Sequence record: MH752840.1
Reading direction: 5' to 3' (one strand)
Source: Escherichia phage vB_EcoM-Pr121LW
DNA: 64,000 bases
This document shows positions 7,215-61,339 of the stretch, one piece after another. The number at the start of each line of letters is the position of its first letter. Positions within the stretch are counted from its first letter, which is position 1. Both the position numbers and the translations under genes were made by a program. The notes under the pieces are model-generated. The model ran no database searches. It was not told where the DNA came from and saw only the letters and a program-made list of their open reading frames with translations.

Positions 7215-7639
7215 TGAGCACACATCCTCGTTTAGTAGATTGGCAAGAAAGATTGTGGAAAGTGTTTGACGAAGAGGCCACCATACCTTTTGAATGGGGA
7301 TTCCACGATTGTTGCACCTTTGCAGCCAAGTGTGTTGATGCCCAGTACGGAACAGATTTTCTTTCTAACTTCGAAGGAACGTATAAAACAGAGTTGGAAA
7401 GCAAAAGATGGTGCATGCTCCGTTTCAAAACCACACACCTGCCTACTATTTTTGATCTCTTTATGACTCGGCTGGATACTCATAAACAGGTTCAGCGTGG
7501 AGATATTGTCATTTTCGAAGGTCTGAACGGGCTCACCGCTGGTGTGTTCTGGAACAACCAGATTTGGGCGAAAGGTGATAAAGGGGTCTTTATGTTCGAC
7601 ATGAAAGATTCTATCGTTGTTGATGTCTGGAGGTATTAA
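7214..7639 (+). CDS. tail assembly protein, NlpC/P60-like (lambda K-like)
   Basis: ATG overlaps upstream stop (TAATG); FHDCCTF cysteine motif resembles NlpC/P60 active site; immediately upstream of J-like gene. Confidence 0.5.
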   Translation: MSTHPRLVDWQERLWKVFDEEATIPFEWGFHDCCTFAAKCVDAQYGTDFLSNFEGTYKTELESKRWCMLRFKTTHLPTIFDLFMTRLDTHKQVQRGDIVIFEGLNGLTAGVFWNNQIWAKGDKGVFMFDMKDSIVVDVWRY

Positions 7640-10600
7640 TGCCAATTGCAATGATTGATAACATCGTTGCTTCTGCAAGATCTTCAAGTTATGACTGGAA
7701 CGCATCCAAGGCAGCTCTGGCTGACAGCCTGAACACTGTTACCACCAGAACTCTGGATAAGATTTTTGAGGGCAACAAATCTTACAGAAGTCAGCAAGAT
7801 AGACAAAAGCTTCTCAGATCTTCTGCTGCACCCTGCTCTGTAGTGTATGGGAAGACACGCACGTCTGGGCTGCTTGCGTTTTTGGAGCAGGACAGAGACA
7901 GAACCCTCCATTGTGCCATTGTTCTTGCTAATCATCCTCTGGAAGGTATAGAAGACATACTCATCGACGGTAATCCTATTTCCTCGTATGGAGATCTGGT
8001 ATCGTGGGAGCTACATAACGACAGAAAAACATCTGATCCTTTCATGGGTACACACTGCCCATCGTGGTCACCAGATATGATAGGCAGAGGTATCAGTTGG
8101 CTGCGTGCCAGCTTCAAGTTTGACCCCAGTAAGTTTCCTTTTGGGTTGCCAAACGTTACACTGGTCAAGGTTGGTAAAAAATGCTATGACCCCCGCATCA
8201 GTAAAGAGGTGTATACCAATAACGCGGCCTTGGTGATCCTGGACTATTTAAGAACGTACCTTAAATGTCCTGACGAAACCATCAACTGGGAGTCCTTTAG
8301 GGAGGCTGCCAATATATGCGACGAGGCGGTAAAAAACGCTGACGGAACCAGTGAGCGACGTTACACCATTAACGGTGAGTTTGACATGGATGAGGCCCCA
8401 GCAAGTATTATGGCAGAAATGCTGAAAGCTTGCGGTGCAGACCTTAGTTATGTTGCTGGTAAGTATGGTTTGCTGGTTGGTGCATACTATGGCCCAGCAA
8501 CAATGACACTGAGTGAGGATTGTGTCTGTGGTGAGGTCAAGATCTATCCGGAAGCCTCCTTTGACAAGAGATCCAACACAATAACTGGCAGATTCACTAG
8601 TCCGACCAAAGGGTATTCTGAAACAGATTTTCCATCAGTGTTTGTCCCAGAGTGGATAGAGAAGGATGGAGAAAGAAAGATAATTGATATAGACTATCGC
8701 TTTGTTACCAGTCCTTATCAAGCTCAGCGTGTTTCTGCAATCTTCTTAAGACGTGCTAGAGCTGGCAGGATTATTGAAGTCACCTGCAATATGCGAGGTT
8801 TTAAATTTAAACCTGGCCGTTACGTTACAATGGACCTTCCAAGTATTGGTATAGTAGGCCAAGAAATGAGGGTTCTTGAATGGGAGTTCACCAAAAAGGG
8901 CGGTGTCAAGGTAAAACTTCGTCAAGATGCTAAAGAGTGGAATGATGCCACAGGGCAACTTCCGGATTCTGGTGATGTAGATATTCCGATATCTCCATCT
9001 GGTGTAGCTCAACCGCAAAACTTCAGATATTCCGTTCTCCAAGCCGGGGAAGTAACTCACGGTGTTTTGGCTTGGGACAACGTTGGAACTTACGCTCAAA
9101 ATATTGTGCAGGTAAGAAAGAACGGAGAGATTGTTTGGACAGCACAGACAGTTGAGCAGTTTGTCCGAGTAGAAGGCTTGACCAAAGGATCATACACAGC
9201 AACCGTGGTTGCAACATCTTATAAAGGTGGTGTATCTCCAGAAGCGTACTGCGAGTTCAACATTCAGGCACCTGAAGCTCCTGTTTCTGTGGAGGTTAAG
9301 CAGGGATACTTTGCTATTACCCTGATCCCGCACAGCAGAGACTTGGCTAGTGTAAGCACCCAGTACGACTTTTGGACATCTGGGATGACAAGATTGCCAG
9401 ATACCAGTGATGTAACAGTTACTTCAAAAGCCACTCGTATGGGTGTTGGTTCAACTTGGACATCTGAAGGTCTGCAGAACGATAAGATTTATTACTGGTA
9501 TATCAGGACAACAAATGCTTTTGGTTCATCTGCTTTTGTGGAGTGTGCAGCCCACTGTTACACATCCATAGAAGATCTTATGCCACAGATTGATGCTGAG
9601 TTCAAAAAGACAGAGACTTATAAAGAGCTTACCGCCAATCTTGATAATGCAGTCAAGGAAATGGATAAAAATGTTGGTGCAGTCAATGACCGTGTTACTA
9701 GCATTTTTGAAGAGCTTGGGGATACAATAGAGGGTGTTGTCAGAGAGACGACAGAAAAATTTACAGGGGTTAATGGAGAAATTTCTGCCCTTAACAGTAA
9801 GCTGGTAGCAGCTCAGCAATCCTTTGACGATAAACTTGCAGCAGAGTCTGGTAGGCTTGGGTCACTAATCGAGACAACAAATAGATCAACCGTTGATCTT
9901 GTTAATCGTAAAACTCAAGCATTGAGTGAGCAAATAACTGCAACTCAAGGTGCTCTGCGGGAAGAGTTGAAGAACACTGAGAGCAAACTTAACTCCTCTA
10001 TTCAAGAAACCAACAAGGCAACAACCGATCTGCTAAATAAGACAACGGAAGCTATTAAGCAGGATCTGGTGGCAGCTACAGGGAAGATCACCAAGCTGGA
10101 AGATGATGTGCAGAAAGAGGTTGCCAATCTGCAAGCATCTATTCAAGAAACTAATAGTACAACAGTTGATCTTGTTAATAATACAGCCACAGCGATCCGT
10201 CAAGAACTTACCTCTGCAAAACAAGAAATTGTTGACGAAATGGGTAATATTGATGAGCTCAGGGCTACAGTATCTAATACCTCTAAAGCTGTAACAACAC
10301 TTGAGGGTAAAATAGATGCTCAGTGGGGAGCTAAGATTCAGGTTGACAGCCATGGTAATAAATATGTGGCAGGTATCCAGCTGGGCATGGAGGGGTCTGG
10401 AGGACAAGTTCAATCATACTTCATGGTTAGTGCAAACAACTTTGCGGTATACAACCCCGGAAATGGAACAGCAACCCTTGCTTTCGCAATCAAGAACAAC
10501 CAAGCGTTCTTGAAAGACGCTTTTATAGAGAATGGCACGATCTCCTCTGCCAAGATCGCACAAGAAATTTCGTCAAACAACTACGATGGCAACGGGTACC

Positions 10601-11058
10601 ATAAATACGGTTGGTATATTAACAAGAACGGGCATGCCCAATTTATGGATGTGTGGGTGAAAGGCAACATCAACGCCAGTTCTGGTAACTTCACAGGGGC
10701 AGTTAATGCCACCAGTGGTACCTTCCGTGGAGATGTTTATGCCAATAATGGTAGCTTTAGAGGCACCATAGATGCAACCGGAGGTACATTCCGTGGTCGT
10801 GTAGAAGCTTCTGTTATCCGTGCTAACCAGTTCGAAGGTGCAATTGTTGCACACAGGACTTACGGAGATTGTGCTCCAGTGCATAACTCCCAGCAGAGGG
10901 TTTGCCGTTGGAGGTGGAGATACGTAGATAACGTTTCAGGTCAAGGTAAGAACGTAACATTCTTCTTTAAACTGAACGGTACTCGTGCCAACTCCCAACT
11001 AAATGCGTGGATAGCTGGTCATCAACTCCTTGCTGGCAAGAAGTACGGGAACGGATAA
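7639..11058 (+). CDS. tail-tip host-specificity protein (lambda J-like), truncated by stop at the junction of a 127-bp tandem duplication
   Basis: 1139 codons; motifs QGYFAITLIPH, QYDFWTS, YYWYIRTTNAFGSSAFVE, KYVAGIQLGMEG recalled as lambda J-like; stop TAA 11056-11058 sits exactly at repeat junction. Confidence 0.65.
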   Translation: MPIAMIDNIVASARSSSYDWNASKAALADSLNTVTTRTLDKIFEGNKSYRSQQDRQKLLRSSAAPCSVVYGKTRTSGLLAFLEQDRDRTLHCAIVLANHPLEGIEDILIDGNPISSYGDLVSWELHNDRKTSDPFMGTHCPSWSPDMIGRGISWLRASFKFDPSKFPFGLPNVTLVKVGKKCYDPRISKEVYTNNAALVILDYLRTYLKCPDETINWESFREAANICDEAVKNADGTSERRYTINGEFDMDEAPASIMAEMLKACGADLSYVAGKYGLLVGAYYGPATMTLSEDCVCGEVKIYPEASFDKRSNTITGRFTSPTKGYSETDFPSVFVPEWIEKDGERKIIDIDYRFVTSPYQAQRVSAIFLRRARAGRIIEVTCNMRGFKFKPGRYVTMDLPSIGIVGQEMRVLEWEFTKKGGVKVKLRQDAKEWNDATGQLPDSGDVDIPISPSGVAQPQNFRYSVLQAGEVTHGVLAWDNVGTYAQNIVQVRKNGEIVWTAQTVEQFVRVEGLTKGSYTATVVATSYKGGVSPEAYCEFNIQAPEAPVSVEVKQGYFAITLIPHSRDLASVSTQYDFWTSGMTRLPDTSDVTVTSKATRMGVGSTWTSEGLQNDKIYYWYIRTTNAFGSSAFVECAAHCYTSIEDLMPQIDAEFKKTETYKELTANLDNAVKEMDKNVGAVNDRVTSIFEELGDTIEGVVRETTEKFTGVNGEISALNSKLVAAQQSFDDKLAAESGRLGSLIETTNRSTVDLVNRKTQALSEQITATQGALREELKNTESKLNSSIQETNKATTDLLNKTTEAIKQDLVAATGKITKLEDDVQKEVANLQASIQETNSTTVDLVNNTATAIRQELTSAKQEIVDEMGNIDELRATVSNTSKAVTTLEGKIDAQWGAKIQVDSHGNKYVAGIQLGMEGSGGQVQSYFMVSANNFAVYNPGNGTATLAFAIKNNQAFLKDAFIENGTISSAKIAQEISSNNYDGNGYHKYGWYINKNGHAQFMDVWVKGNINASSGNFTGAVNATSGTFRGDVYANNGSFRGTIDATGGTFRGRVEASVIRANQFEGAIVAHRTYGDCAPVHNSQQRVCRWRWRYVDNVSGQGKNVTFFFKLNGTRANSQLNAWIAGHQLLAGKKYGNG

Positions 11059-11180
11059 CGTTTCAGGTCAAGGTAAGAACGTAACATTCTTCTTTAAACT
11101 GAACGGTACTCGTGCCAACTCCCAACTAAATGCGTGGATAGCTGGTCATCAACTCCTTGCTGGCAAGAAGTACGGGAACG
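10927..11180 (+). repeat. perfect 127-bp direct tandem duplication (copy 1 10927-11053, copy 2 11054-11180)
   Basis: Both copies identical base for base when read from the sequence; 127 is 1 mod 3 so the downstream reading frame shifts. Confidence 0.9.
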
Positions 11181-11365
11181 CCAACGATGGCATGTGTGCA
11201 ATTGGGATAACAGGTCTAGGTGAACAAACTATAGACATTATTATTGAAATCTACACCCCGTGGTCAACGTCAAACGTGACAGGTGTCACAATCTCCTGTC
11301 CCACTGTGATCGTTAGTCGTTCTAACTCAAGCTTCCAGGGACCTTGGAACGAGTCTCACGACTAA
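11054..11365 (+). other. displaced C-terminal coding segment of the J-like gene (+1 frame relative to 7639 ORF)
   Basis: Copy 2 is read in the same codon phase as copy 1 and continues 61 codons to a stop at 11365; deleting one copy fuses 7639..11365 into one ORF of about 1200 codons. Confidence 0.6.
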
Positions 11366-11372
11366 CCTTTAA

Positions 11373-11400
11373 AGCCCCGCTTCGGCGGGGTTTATTTTTA
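11373..11400 (+). terminator. rho-independent terminator
   Basis: ccccgcttcggcgggg hairpin followed by tttattttt. Confidence 0.75.
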
Positions 11401-11408
11401 TGCTCAGA

Positions 11409-11437
11409 TTGACTATTGTTACAAAATTTGGTAAAAT
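11409..11437 (+). promoter_or_regulatory. sigma70-type promoter (TTGACT-17-TAAAAT)
   Basis: Hexamers with 17-nt spacer; same core as promoter at 6011. Confidence 0.55.
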
Positions 11438-11470: not shown

Positions 11471-12961
11471 GTGGCTAAGTATGGATTGACAGAGGCTGGT
11501 TTCGTTATACCAACCCTAAATGACCTAATCGTTGAAACTAAGCAAAGCCTGATCCGTGCTTTTGGCGAAAACTTCAACGTACAGAGTAACTCCGTTGCAG
11601 ATAAGCTGACCACTATCTTCAACGAGCGAGAGTATCAACTTATTCTTATGGCAGCATCTGTATACGCATCACAGACGCTGTATGGGGCAGAAGGTATTTA
11701 CCTAGACGAACTTCTTGGAAGACGGGGTATTTACCGAAGAGGCCGTTCTAAATCATCAGGTACCTGCCAGTTGACGATCAACACAACTGTTCCGTACAAT
11801 ATGATTTACGATTCCAAAACTTATACGTTGGATAGTGGCAACTTTGTTCTTAGCAATGATGTGCAAGTAGCAGGGAATCTTATTGCTCACAGAATAAATG
11901 CTCCAGACCTAAGGATTGGTAAATACAACTTTCAAATTACCAACCAGACAGATGGAAGTATCAAAACAAAAAGTCTGGTTTTAACAGATAAGGCTCTGGA
12001 CTCTTCTGATCTGCCAAGCTTTTACGGAGAGATTAAGCAATTCATTGTCGATAATACAACTCTGTTGAACGACGATTTGATTCAGATCGATATGTTGACA
12101 GGAACGTTGTGGATAGGGTACAATTCGAATCTTGACCAAGTTGGACTTAATAGTAGGGTAGATTTCAGAGTATCCCCGATTGTAGGGGAAAGAACTATCA
12201 CCCTAGATGTTATCGCTAACGAGGCTGGTGAGCTGTCAAGAGAGGCAGAAACCGTGACAACAATGTCACCTACTCCCAGTGGATTTATCAAGCTTACCAA
12301 CCGAGAAAGATTCAATGAGGGAAGGGATGTTGAGAAAGACTCAGAGTACCGCTTAAGAGCTTCCAGCACAAAACAGTTAACATCTAAGGCTACCCGTCCT
12401 GCAATCCTTAGCGCTGTAAGCGAGGTGAAAGGTGTTGAGAAAGTGAGAGTGTTCTCTAACAATACCGATAAAACTGATGCTAAAGGTATACCTCCTTACA
12501 AGTTCCAAGTGGTTGTGTTTGGTGGTGCAACAGAGGACATTTGCCAAGCACTTTACCAAACTATAGCCTGTACGAACAGGACTTATGGTAATATTTTCTA
12601 CGATGTAACTACATCTGACGGTCAAACTGAAAGAATTTATTATTCCAAGGCAAATACCTACCGCCTGGATGTAAGAATTACCTACTCCGGTGCTGCGCTT
12701 TCCACAACCGAAAAAGATGCCATTGTAGAGGCTCTTTTGCAGGTTGTTAACGGACTGGATGTTGCAGATACGTTGTACAATATCCAATTGGTCGGTGCTG
12801 CATCTGCTGCTGTGTCGATAGGTAGATTTAATAGACTGGTAATTCAAGTTAAACCTGTGGGTGCTTCTGATGAAGCTTACACTGCAAACGATATTGTTGC
12901 AAACATGACCGAGGTGTTTGACCTCGATGAAAGTAATATAACTTTCCAACAAACTATTTAG
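11471..12961 (+). CDS. tail/baseplate structural protein
   Basis: 496-aa ORF, GTG start after RBS ggaggag, behind terminator and promoter; late-module context. Confidence 0.5.
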   Translation: MAKYGLTEAGFVIPTLNDLIVETKQSLIRAFGENFNVQSNSVADKLTTIFNEREYQLILMAASVYASQTLYGAEGIYLDELLGRRGIYRRGRSKSSGTCQLTINTTVPYNMIYDSKTYTLDSGNFVLSNDVQVAGNLIAHRINAPDLRIGKYNFQITNQTDGSIKTKSLVLTDKALDSSDLPSFYGEIKQFIVDNTTLLNDDLIQIDMLTGTLWIGYNSNLDQVGLNSRVDFRVSPIVGERTITLDVIANEAGELSREAETVTTMSPTPSGFIKLTNRERFNEGRDVEKDSEYRLRASSTKQLTSKATRPAILSAVSEVKGVEKVRVFSNNTDKTDAKGIPPYKFQVVVFGGATEDICQALYQTIACTNRTYGNIFYDVTTSDGQTERIYYSKANTYRLDVRITYSGAALSTTEKDAIVEALLQVVNGLDVADTLYNIQLVGAASAAVSIGRFNRLVIQVKPVGASDEAYTANDIVANMTEVFDLDESNITFQQTI

Positions 12962-15743: not shown

Positions 15744-16784
15744 ATGTCAAAACCTAGTTTTCCATTAGAGATTTGGGCAGAGGAGGATCAGGTTCTGCCT
15801 AACACCCACAGACAGAACAGGCTACGCCCGATTGATGATTTGTGGAGAAAAGGTTGGGATCTTGGTCAAAAGCCCTCATGTGAAGAACTTAACTATATTT
15901 TCAATATGCTCGGAACTTGGGCAAAATATATTGCTGACGAGCAGATCCCCGCTCAAGAAGGCCGTTATCTGGTACGCGATAATAACTTGAGTGATCTTTT
16001 GAACATTCCTGTTGCCCGTAGAAACCTTGGGATTATTACTAAGGAAGAGGCAGACGCCAGGTATGTAAAAGTTACAGGTGATACAATGACAGGCCCACTG
16101 GGTTTGCAACGTATCAACTTTAAAGCTGCCGAGACAGATAAGGCTTGGATAGAGACAACTATTGGCCCAGATAAGACAACTCTCGACTTTGGGTTAAGTG
16201 ATAATACCGGGTCGTTTGATGATGGTGGTACATCTACAGTAGATGCGTTTCGTTGGAGATTCCAGCCAACTCAACCGGATATCAATCCGGAGTTCACTTT
16301 GATGTACCTTAACGCGATCACGGCTAACCGTGCGCTGTTGAAAGTGATAGGCAATGTTGAAGTTGTCGATAACATGAGGTGCAATAACCTTACTATCAGC
16401 AATACAGCAACATTCACCAACTGTAATGTGGCTAGTCAGTTGACGGCTGGGTCAGTGTATGTTAATGGTGGTACAAGTTGTGACAGTATGGTTGTAAGAA
16501 GTCAGCACTGTGTTGTCGGTAACAGAAATGTGGTGCGCTCTGTGAATGGAGTGACGGCTAACGGTAACGGTGATGTAACAATCACTATCCCGCAGACAGG
16601 TGTGCAAGACATCAGAATCGGTGCAAGACTTGTTGACGGCGTTTCTGAATCTCCAATTCGCAACGGCTACGTTGTCACAGGCTGGCATTTCGGTGACAAA
16701 AAAGAGATGCGTGGTTCAACCTACTGGGCAGGACCTTTACAAAAACTTGTAAATGGTCAATGGATCACTGTTAATTATGCATAG
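15744..16784 (+). CDS. tail fibre protein (paralog 1)
   Basis: 346 aa; paralog of 17799..18842 along full length; followed by Tfa chaperone gene. Confidence 0.6.
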   Translation: MSKPSFPLEIWAEEDQVLPNTHRQNRLRPIDDLWRKGWDLGQKPSCEELNYIFNMLGTWAKYIADEQIPAQEGRYLVRDNNLSDLLNIPVARRNLGIITKEEADARYVKVTGDTMTGPLGLQRINFKAAETDKAWIETTIGPDKTTLDFGLSDNTGSFDDGGTSTVDAFRWRFQPTQPDINPEFTLMYLNAITANRALLKVIGNVEVVDNMRCNNLTISNTATFTNCNVASQLTAGSVYVNGGTSCDSMVVRSQHCVVGNRNVVRSVNGVTANGNGDVTITIPQTGVQDIRIGARLVDGVSESPIRNGYVVTGWHFGDKKEMRGSTYWAGPLQKLVNGQWITVNYA

Positions 16785-17709: not shown

Positions 17710-17798
17710 ACAAAGGTCAGGACGGAAAGGACTCCGTTCTTGCATTTTGTTCACTAAAGTGTTAAAATAGTCCTAAGGAATTTTCTCAGGAGAACGTG

Positions 17799-18842
17799 AT
17801 GACTAAACCAGTTATCCCTCTTGATATTTGGGCCAATCAGGATGTTGTGCTTGAAAATACGGGAGAATTGAATAAGTCCCAACCAAAAAAAGAAGAGAGA
17901 CTGAAAGGTTGGGATATGACACAAAGAGTGGCATGTGAAGTTGTTAACTTTGAACTTCACATGCTTTCTGCGTGGTTAAAGCATTTAACAGAAGATGTTG
18001 TCCCAGGATGGGATAATAGATTCTTAAGGGTCACTAATAATCTGGCAGACGTTCCAGACAAAGCTGCTGCACGTCAAGTTCTCAATGTATACTCGCCTGA
18101 AGAAATGGATGACCTTTATGTTGACAAGGCTGGAGACACAATGATCCAGACTCAAACTTTAGGTCTTCAAAGAATCGAGTTTGCATCCGCGTCAACAGAC
18201 AATGCGGCGATATACACCACCATAACTTCAGACAAGACGATGATGGATTTCTGGATTATGGACAACATCGGTGGTGCTGACGGCACAGACCTTGATGATC
18301 CCTCTCACCAAATAGACGGTTTCCGTTGGAGATTTCAACCTTCTGGTGGGCAGCCTGTGTTTTCAGCTATGAAGCTCAATGCTATAACTGCCAACCGTGC
18401 AAGACTGGCTATCCAAGGAAATCTTGAATGCAACGACGCAAAAAGTTCCTCTACAAATGCCAATGCAGCTACTATACCAAGAGCCACTGTTAATGGACAA
18501 CAATCCTGTGGAAGCGCTCAAATAGGTGGAAGAGTTGATTGCAACGATGAAACCGTCAGGGGCCAATATGCAACAGTTGGTGGAAGAAACGTGGTCCGCA
18601 GGGTAAATGGTAACAGCGCAGACGGTAGTGGTAACCTTACTATCCCTATGCCCAGCAGAGGGGTTGATGATGTGAGGATAGCAAACCGTTTCAAAACCAC
18701 CTACAGAGAGTCAAGAGTCTACCCTGGACATGTGATGTGCTCGGGTAACTACGCTTATAAACACCCTTATCAAGGTGATTACTGGACAGGTGCTATCCAA
18801 AAACTTGTAAATGGTCAATGGATCACTATATCTTATGCTTAA
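17799..18842 (+). CDS. tail fibre protein (paralog 2)
   Basis: 347 aa from ATG 17799; N-terminus TKPVIPLDIWANQD and C-terminus QKLVNGQWITISYA parallel paralog 1; last 30 nt before the final codons identical to 16741-16770. Confidence 0.6.
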   Translation: MTKPVIPLDIWANQDVVLENTGELNKSQPKKEERLKGWDMTQRVACEVVNFELHMLSAWLKHLTEDVVPGWDNRFLRVTNNLADVPDKAAARQVLNVYSPEEMDDLYVDKAGDTMIQTQTLGLQRIEFASASTDNAAIYTTITSDKTMMDFWIMDNIGGADGTDLDDPSHQIDGFRWRFQPSGGQPVFSAMKLNAITANRARLAIQGNLECNDAKSSSTNANAATIPRATVNGQQSCGSAQIGGRVDCNDETVRGQYATVGGRNVVRRVNGNSADGSGNLTIPMPSRGVDDVRIANRFKTTYRESRVYPGHVMCSGNYAYKHPYQGDYWTGAIQKLVNGQWITISYA

Positions 18843-60311: not shown

Positions 60312-60358
60312 TTTATTTTTAGATGGCCTTGACTCCAGGGCCATCAATAAAGTAAACT
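60312..60358 (+). repeat. 47-bp intergenic cassette, copy 1
   Basis: tttatttttagatggccttgactccagggccatcaataaagtaaact; T-run, inverted repeat gatggcc/ggccatc, TTGACT-18-TAAACT promoter-like hexamers. Confidence 0.7.
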
Positions 60359-60389
60359 AACCACAGTTGAGCGGAAAGGGGGCTTAAAG

Positions 60390-60930: not shown

Positions 60931-60977
60931 TTTATTTTTAGATGGCCTTGACTCCAGGGCCATCAATAAAGTAAACT
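60931..60977 (+). repeat. 47-bp intergenic cassette, copy 2 (identical to 60312-60358)
   Basis: Exact repeat read from sequence; a degenerate third copy lies at about 61264-61315. Confidence 0.7.
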
Positions 60978-61018
60978 TTACACTGTTAACACTGAACTAA
61001 TACAGAGGAGTTAAAACC

Positions 61019-61264: not shown

Positions 61265-61339
61265 TTATTTTTTCGGTGGTCCTTGCTGCAGGGCCATCTA
61301 TAAAGATAATTTACTAACACCATGAAAGGAGAAAGTAAC

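Follow-up and report, generated by a model that had tools for sequence, protein, structure and literature searches.

An exact 127-nt tandem repeat that splits the J-like tail-tip gene in an rV5-like coliphage sequence is very probably an assembly or record-handling artefact

Tandem duplications are known in phage genomes. The value of 127 is, in turn, the largest k that SPAdes accepts and belongs to its k series for long paired reads; it also appears in the k list of JGI metaSPAdes, and the meta-large preset of MEGAHIT ends at it. Overlaps of 127 bp between the two ends of SPAdes contigs have been documented as artefacts that should be taken out of phage genomes (PMC5923482), and in a coliphage genome announcement 127-bp terminal repeats were removed before the genome was re-opened (PMC8104045). 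The genome of the type phage rV5 is described as circularly permuted (PMC3606486), and because of such permutation rV5-like genomes, presumably including the present one, assemble as circles. In this study, we describe a perfect 127-nt repeat inside the J-like tail-tip gene of a phage related to rV5, found in a window of 64,000 nucleotides, which is the whole stretch of DNA that was analysed.

Megablast against phage records places the window in Vequintavirus, as an rV5-like E. coli myophage with a genome of about 136 kb. With the J-like gene as the query, 116 phage records were matched at 90–98% identity, mostly Escherichia phages of 135–139 kb, while a 25-kb stretch downstream matched 135 records; the best relatives are 96–99.9% identical. 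Eighteen unannotated UNVERIFIED records (MG065635-MG065690), named 'Campylobacter phage' with C. jejuni as the host, share 95–97% identity with rV5-like phages of E. coli and are assigned to Vequintavirinae. The attribution of these records to C. jejuni looks doubtful, and they are possibly derived from contaminating coliphages in the preparations.

The repeat consists of two copies on the + strand, at 10927..11053 and 11054..11180, each of 127 nt, 100% identical to one another and set head to tail; the perfect 127-bp tandem duplication that the sequence-only reading had placed at 10927-11180 was thus reproduced base for base. The run with a period of 127 extends over exactly 254 nt, its periodicity being broken by the flanking bases A10926 and C11181. 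A repeat of this kind, both long and perfect, is unique within the 64-kb window, in which no second k-length duplication was found, and it cannot have arisen by chance. Microhomology is absent from the junction (0 nt). GATAACG, at the start of the unit, and GACAACG, across the end of the unit in the relatives, form the closest imperfect direct repeat, with a spacing of 126 nt and not 127.

Copy 1 keeps the frame of the J-like ORF upstream of it; its 127 nt code for DNVSGQGKNVTFFFKLNGTRANSQLNAWIAGHQLLAGKKYGN and contribute one further base, the first of the following codon. Copy 2 carries the same bases in the +1 frame relative to the upstream one, and we read it as the redundant copy, corresponding to a putative k-mer overlap. 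As present, the J-like ORF occupies 7639..11058 on the + strand and encodes 1139 aa, namely the native residues 1–1138 and a Gly, which are followed by the TAA at 11056–11058. This stop codon lies three bases into copy 2 and arises from the frame shift at the junction; the continuation of the protein is found in the +1 frame and stops at 11363–11365. As 127 equals 42×3+1, the removal of one copy yields 3600 nt, that is, 1199 codons and a stop, in which 7639..11053 is continuous with the 3′ remainder of the gene (11181..11365, + strand; the last two bases of codon 1139, the last 60 codons and the stop). The repaired protein of 1199 aa aligns without gaps, residue for residue, with the 1199-aa J-like proteins of 10 relatives, from which it differs by 3–23 substitutions. 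The true J-like tail-tip gene almost certainly has 1199 codons without interruption, with 11181..11365 following directly on 7639..11053.

The surroundings of the gene point in the same direction. A strong intrinsic-terminator-like hairpin followed by a T-run (AAGCCCCGC-TTCG-GCGGGGTTT; 11372..11399, + strand, with the hairpin itself at 11372-11393) begins 7 nt past the stop at 11365, and therefore the natural end of the gene is at 11365 and not at 11058. A promoter-like site follows at 11409-11437, ahead of the next gene, which starts at 11471. Neither a programmed frameshift nor a gene functionally split in two was retained as an explanation: the downstream fragment has its first start codon, a TTG, at 11030, before which no Shine-Dalgarno-like stretch was seen by eye, and the shift is due solely to the extra copy, absent from the relatives.

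The repaired product is related to the tip attachment protein J, or central tail fibre, of lambda-type phages (PDB 8IYK, 8XCJ). It matches the Pfam families PF09327 Phage_Tail_Tip (E 1.6e-38; 132.1 bits, with a cut-off of 22) and PF24489 Ig_J_second (E 3.4e-30; 104.6 bits, cut-off 27), while PF24421 scores 24.4 bits, under its cut-off of 29. Among known structures it matches the J chains of lambda (8iyk_J, E 2.4e-27; 8xcj_Z, E 1.2e-22), although only over query residues ~376-1036, and its counterparts in the relatives are annotated as host specificity protein J, tip attachment protein J or central tail fiber J. The gene sits in a tail and baseplate block, with neighbours that encode a PF22262:DUF6950 protein, a Tail_spike_N/Peptidase_S74 protein, Caudo_TAP and proteins annotated as baseplate components in the relatives. 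Unlike lambda J, the present protein belongs to a contractile-tailed (myovirus) phage of the rV5-like type, has a long coiled-coil-like insert at about 660-885, and shows no sequence match to the C-terminal receptor-binding domain of lambda J in its last ~160 residues. For the C-terminal 103 residues, encoded by window 11054-11362, single-sequence modelling with AlphaFold2 reached a mean pLDDT of 39, which is unusable as a guide to whether the unit belongs to a single domain with the last 61 residues. The claims made before on this gene, namely a J-like tail-tip gene whose 1139-codon ORF stops at the junction, with the rest of the protein in the +1 frame to 11365, and whose repair by deletion of a single copy gives one ORF of about 1200 codons, all hold: the domain and structure matches support the assignment to J, the ORF analysis agrees with the split, 1199 codons and a stop were obtained, and the alignment with related phages that had been proposed as a check runs continuously in the 10 relatives compared.

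The last ~350 nt of the J-like gene (window 10990-11365) are far more variable among the relatives than the remainder, and several distinct alleles can be recognized in the alignment. An exact word of 28 nt shared with window 11131-11231 is found in 13 phage records, against 116 for the whole gene. This variable 3′ end fits what would be expected, on the basis of sequence comparison, for an exchangeable C-terminal receptor-binding module.

The duplication is confined to the sequence analysed here. A 3762-nt query covering the gene corresponds to about 3635 nt (3762 minus 127) in 112 of the 116 matching phage records, which thus carry a single copy, as do all 19 aligned relatives. The junction between copy 1 and copy 2 occurs in no phage record, both halves of a junction probe mapping to one and the same stretch of 127–133 nt, and exact-pattern scans of IMG/VR and JGI metagenome contigs did not find the exact junction either. 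Seven contigs encode a protein identical to the neighbouring one of 496 aa, and the J gene is intact, at 1199 aa, in all six that were displayed. An exact look-up of the truncated product of 1139 aa returned no such gene on record, and a search of IMG/VR for related contigs that might end at the site or duplicate it gave only three close loci, all single copy. Nor was the record from which the window derives recovered by megablast against phages, plasmids and complete E. coli genomes, by scans of IMG/VR and JGI contigs for the junction and for the C variant at 11181, or in the gene-position index. The closest relative here is L004, a 136,480-bp contig of an NCBI assembly with 99.8% identity upstream; from 10713 to about 12500 only two things set the window apart from it, the extra 127 nt and a C in place of A at 11181.

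Over the region compared with L004 and with L003, the other of the two closest contigs (window 1343-22962), identity is 99.8–99.9% upstream of the end of the J gene and about 99.0% across the tail-fibre and baseplate genes downstream. The additional downstream mismatches set in around 12.5 kb rather than at the junction and are spread over the tail-fibre genes, and the lower identity was therefore rejected as evidence that two strains had been fused at the junction. These mismatches are concentrated at 13.5-17 kb and 19-20.5 kb, a distribution which suggests that phages otherwise nearly identical have exchanged fibre modules in a mosaic fashion.

The base that directly follows the repeat deserves separate consideration. 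At 11181 (+ strand) the window has C, whereas 19 of 19 aligned relatives have A, and codon 1139 is changed from GAC (Asp) to GCC (Ala). The relatives differ among themselves at many sites in the vicinity and yet they all have A at this one, so that Asp1139 is invariant among those compared and only the window has Ala. Differences private to the window amount to 44 in 21,619 comparable positions, and the chance that one of them should directly adjoin the repeat is about 0.4%. The unit 11054-11180 comprises exactly the 127 bases that precede 11181. In a de Bruijn graph with k = 127, the stretch of 127 bases ahead of a variable base is the node at which the graph branches; a circular path is opened at this node, and its sequence then stands at either end of the contig. 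Because the private base directly follows the unit, the repeated 127-mer can be viewed as the node of a k=127 de Bruijn graph that stands before a variant base, and the position of this base at the edge of the repeat adds independent support for a putative origin in such a graph. The C at 11181 could also be an ordinary private substitution that adjoins the repeat by coincidence, the gene having another private change at 9952. With respect to 10 relatives, two changes of the J-like protein are private, T772A (window 9952) and D1139A (window 11181), both to alanine; these could be genuine variants of host range, or else errors in the consensus where a site is polymorphic.

Taken as a whole, the assembled sequence and its comparison with relatives make it very probable that the 127-base repeat is an artefact of assembly or of record handling and not biology. 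The repeat resembles the documented 127-bp end overlaps of SPAdes contigs in its exact length, in its perfect identity and in the circularly assembling type of genome in which it occurs, and also in that removing one copy restores the gene and brings the sequence into agreement with all relatives. It differs from them in that the copies stand head to tail inside the sequence instead of at its two ends. The sequence-only reading had taken the 127 nt as the likely k-length end overlap of an assembler, left untrimmed on a circular contig. The published cases of 127-bp SPAdes overlaps (PMC5923482, PMC8104045), the circular permutation described for rV5, the length and identity of the repeat, the single copy in all relatives (more than 110 phage records and 7 near-identical contigs), the gap-free repair and the private base at the edge all support this reading.

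A possible course of events can be proposed. Copy 2 would be absent from the phage DNA and would represent the k-length overlap (k = 127) left at the contig ends on circular closure by an assembler of the de Bruijn graph type, presumably SPAdes or metaSPAdes, or MEGAHIT with a k-max of 127. The reads may have contained both A and C at 11181, owing either to a minority host-range variant in the lysate or to a mixture of phages, and in that case the k=127 graph would have branched at the node 11054-11180. A circular path opened at that node could then have taken the C branch and returned to it, giving a contig that starts and ends with the 127-mer. As the copies are internal and do not lie at the ends of the sequence, a further step without trimming is required, be it rotation, joining or wrapping: the contig ends would later have been set head to tail during the re-opening or rotation of the record, during the joining of contigs, or through a window taken across the end of a contig that was treated as circular. 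The detailed history of the graph is speculative, since assemblers usually collapse simple SNP bubbles.

This explanation has to be weighed against a genuine and very recent 127-bp tandem duplication, by which the J-like protein would be cut after residue 1138 and its last 61 residues, presumably the receptor-binding region, would be lost. The duplication is, after all, present in the sequence as given, and such events are generally known to occur in phage genomes, where illegitimate recombination or slippage produces head-to-tail direct repeats that, as here, may lie within a gene and shift its frame. The 3′ end of the gene is, in addition, its most variable part among the relatives, and so under diversifying pressure, and the private changes T772A and D1139A could hint at an unusual selection history. 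Nevertheless, we regard a genuine duplication as very unlikely. It gives no reason for a length of 127, which coincides exactly with the maximal k of a common assembler, and the repeat departs from genuine phage tandem duplications in having this assembler-constant length, no divergence between its copies, a junction devoid of microhomology (the imperfect direct repeat being spaced by 126 nt and not 127) and no carrier among the relatives and other assemblies searched. Duplication creates only the junction between the end of copy 1 and the start of copy 2, whereas the private base sits at the outer boundary, which is native and would be left untouched. The C-terminus would be lost, as the downstream fragment would begin only with the TTG at 11030, with no Shine-Dalgarno-like stretch seen before it, and the phage would have to survive with a fibre protein lacking its last 61 residues; besides, a perfect direct repeat of 127 bp would be expected to be quickly deleted by recombination. 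That a real duplication is carried by a viable or defective subpopulation with a J-like fibre shortened by 61 residues, having arisen together with D1139A, for example in a host-range or escape variant that uses the side fibres only, appears highly improbable.

It is also conceivable, with a probability that we judge to be very small, that two contigs, one ending and the other beginning at the same k=127 node and both derived from a sample with two alleles of the J gene or with several related phages, were put together manually or by a scaffolder and that the shared k-mer was kept. Such a joining leaves the same signature, namely a length of exactly k and a variant base that follows the node directly, and it could be seen as agreeing with the drop in identity to L003 and L004 across the junction and with the record MG065652.1, which ends 2 nt past the 127-nt unit as if assemblies tended to break there. 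The rise in mismatch density only at ~12.5 kb stands against it, nothing indicating that two strains meet at the junction, and so does the lack of a second k-length duplication in the 64 kb. The joining of contigs differs from the circular closure of one contig only in a bookkeeping step, and the repeat is in both cases an artefact.

The record MG065652.1 (L002; UNVERIFIED, 58,772 bp, 'Campylobacter phage C11') is a public contig whose positions 1-129 correspond to window 11054-11182 and which ends 2 nt past the unit (...GGAAACGAC). With ~116 records, the chance of a contig end so close to the unit is under 1%. Assemblies from mixed rV5-like preparations may be prone to break at the start of the variable 3′ part of the J gene. 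The end of MG065652.1 also prompted us to consider a pac site or a physical end of the genome at this place, which was rejected, as rV5 is circularly permuted (PMC3606486) and other records start elsewhere.

The artefact matters mainly as data hygiene. If the sequence is annotated unrepaired, the tail-tip gene is called as a truncated protein of 1139 aa and an orphan fragment, the genome is 127 bp too long, and the locus runs the risk of being misread as a pseudogene, as a programmed frameshift or as a host-range truncation. The possible A/C polymorphism (Asp1139/Ala), which falls within the variable C-terminal part of the fibre, may be a real minor host-range variant. From a methodological point of view, a k-length tandem repeat that abuts a base private to the assembly would mark a de Bruijn graph node that coincides with a polymorphic site, and it offers a transferable diagnostic that can be applied without reads and that could flag similar artefacts in other deposited phage genomes.

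Some other features of the window were observed in the course of the analysis. ARAGORN found no tRNA genes in the 64 kb. An intergenic element of 57 nt is present in three copies, at 60312-60368, 60931-60987 and 61265-61321 (100, 93 and 65% identity), and contains a T-run, a perfect palindrome, GATGGCC..GGCCATC, in which TTGACT is embedded, and, some 18 nt further downstream, a TAAACT-like -10 box; the 24-nt palindrome is found in exact form twice in the window, where 0 would be expected. By its motifs, the element resembles an early promoter that is present in several copies and carries an operator-like hairpin. A repeat of 62 nt with 84% identity is found at 16722-16783 and 18780-18841, at the 3′ ends of two tail-fibre ORFs of similar size (15744..16784, 346 aa, and 17796..18842, 348 aa). 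In rV5, gp30 and gp33 form a pair of paralogous T4 gp12-like short fibres that are 42% identical (PMC3606486), and the two ORFs are probably a short-fibre pair of this gp30/gp33 type.
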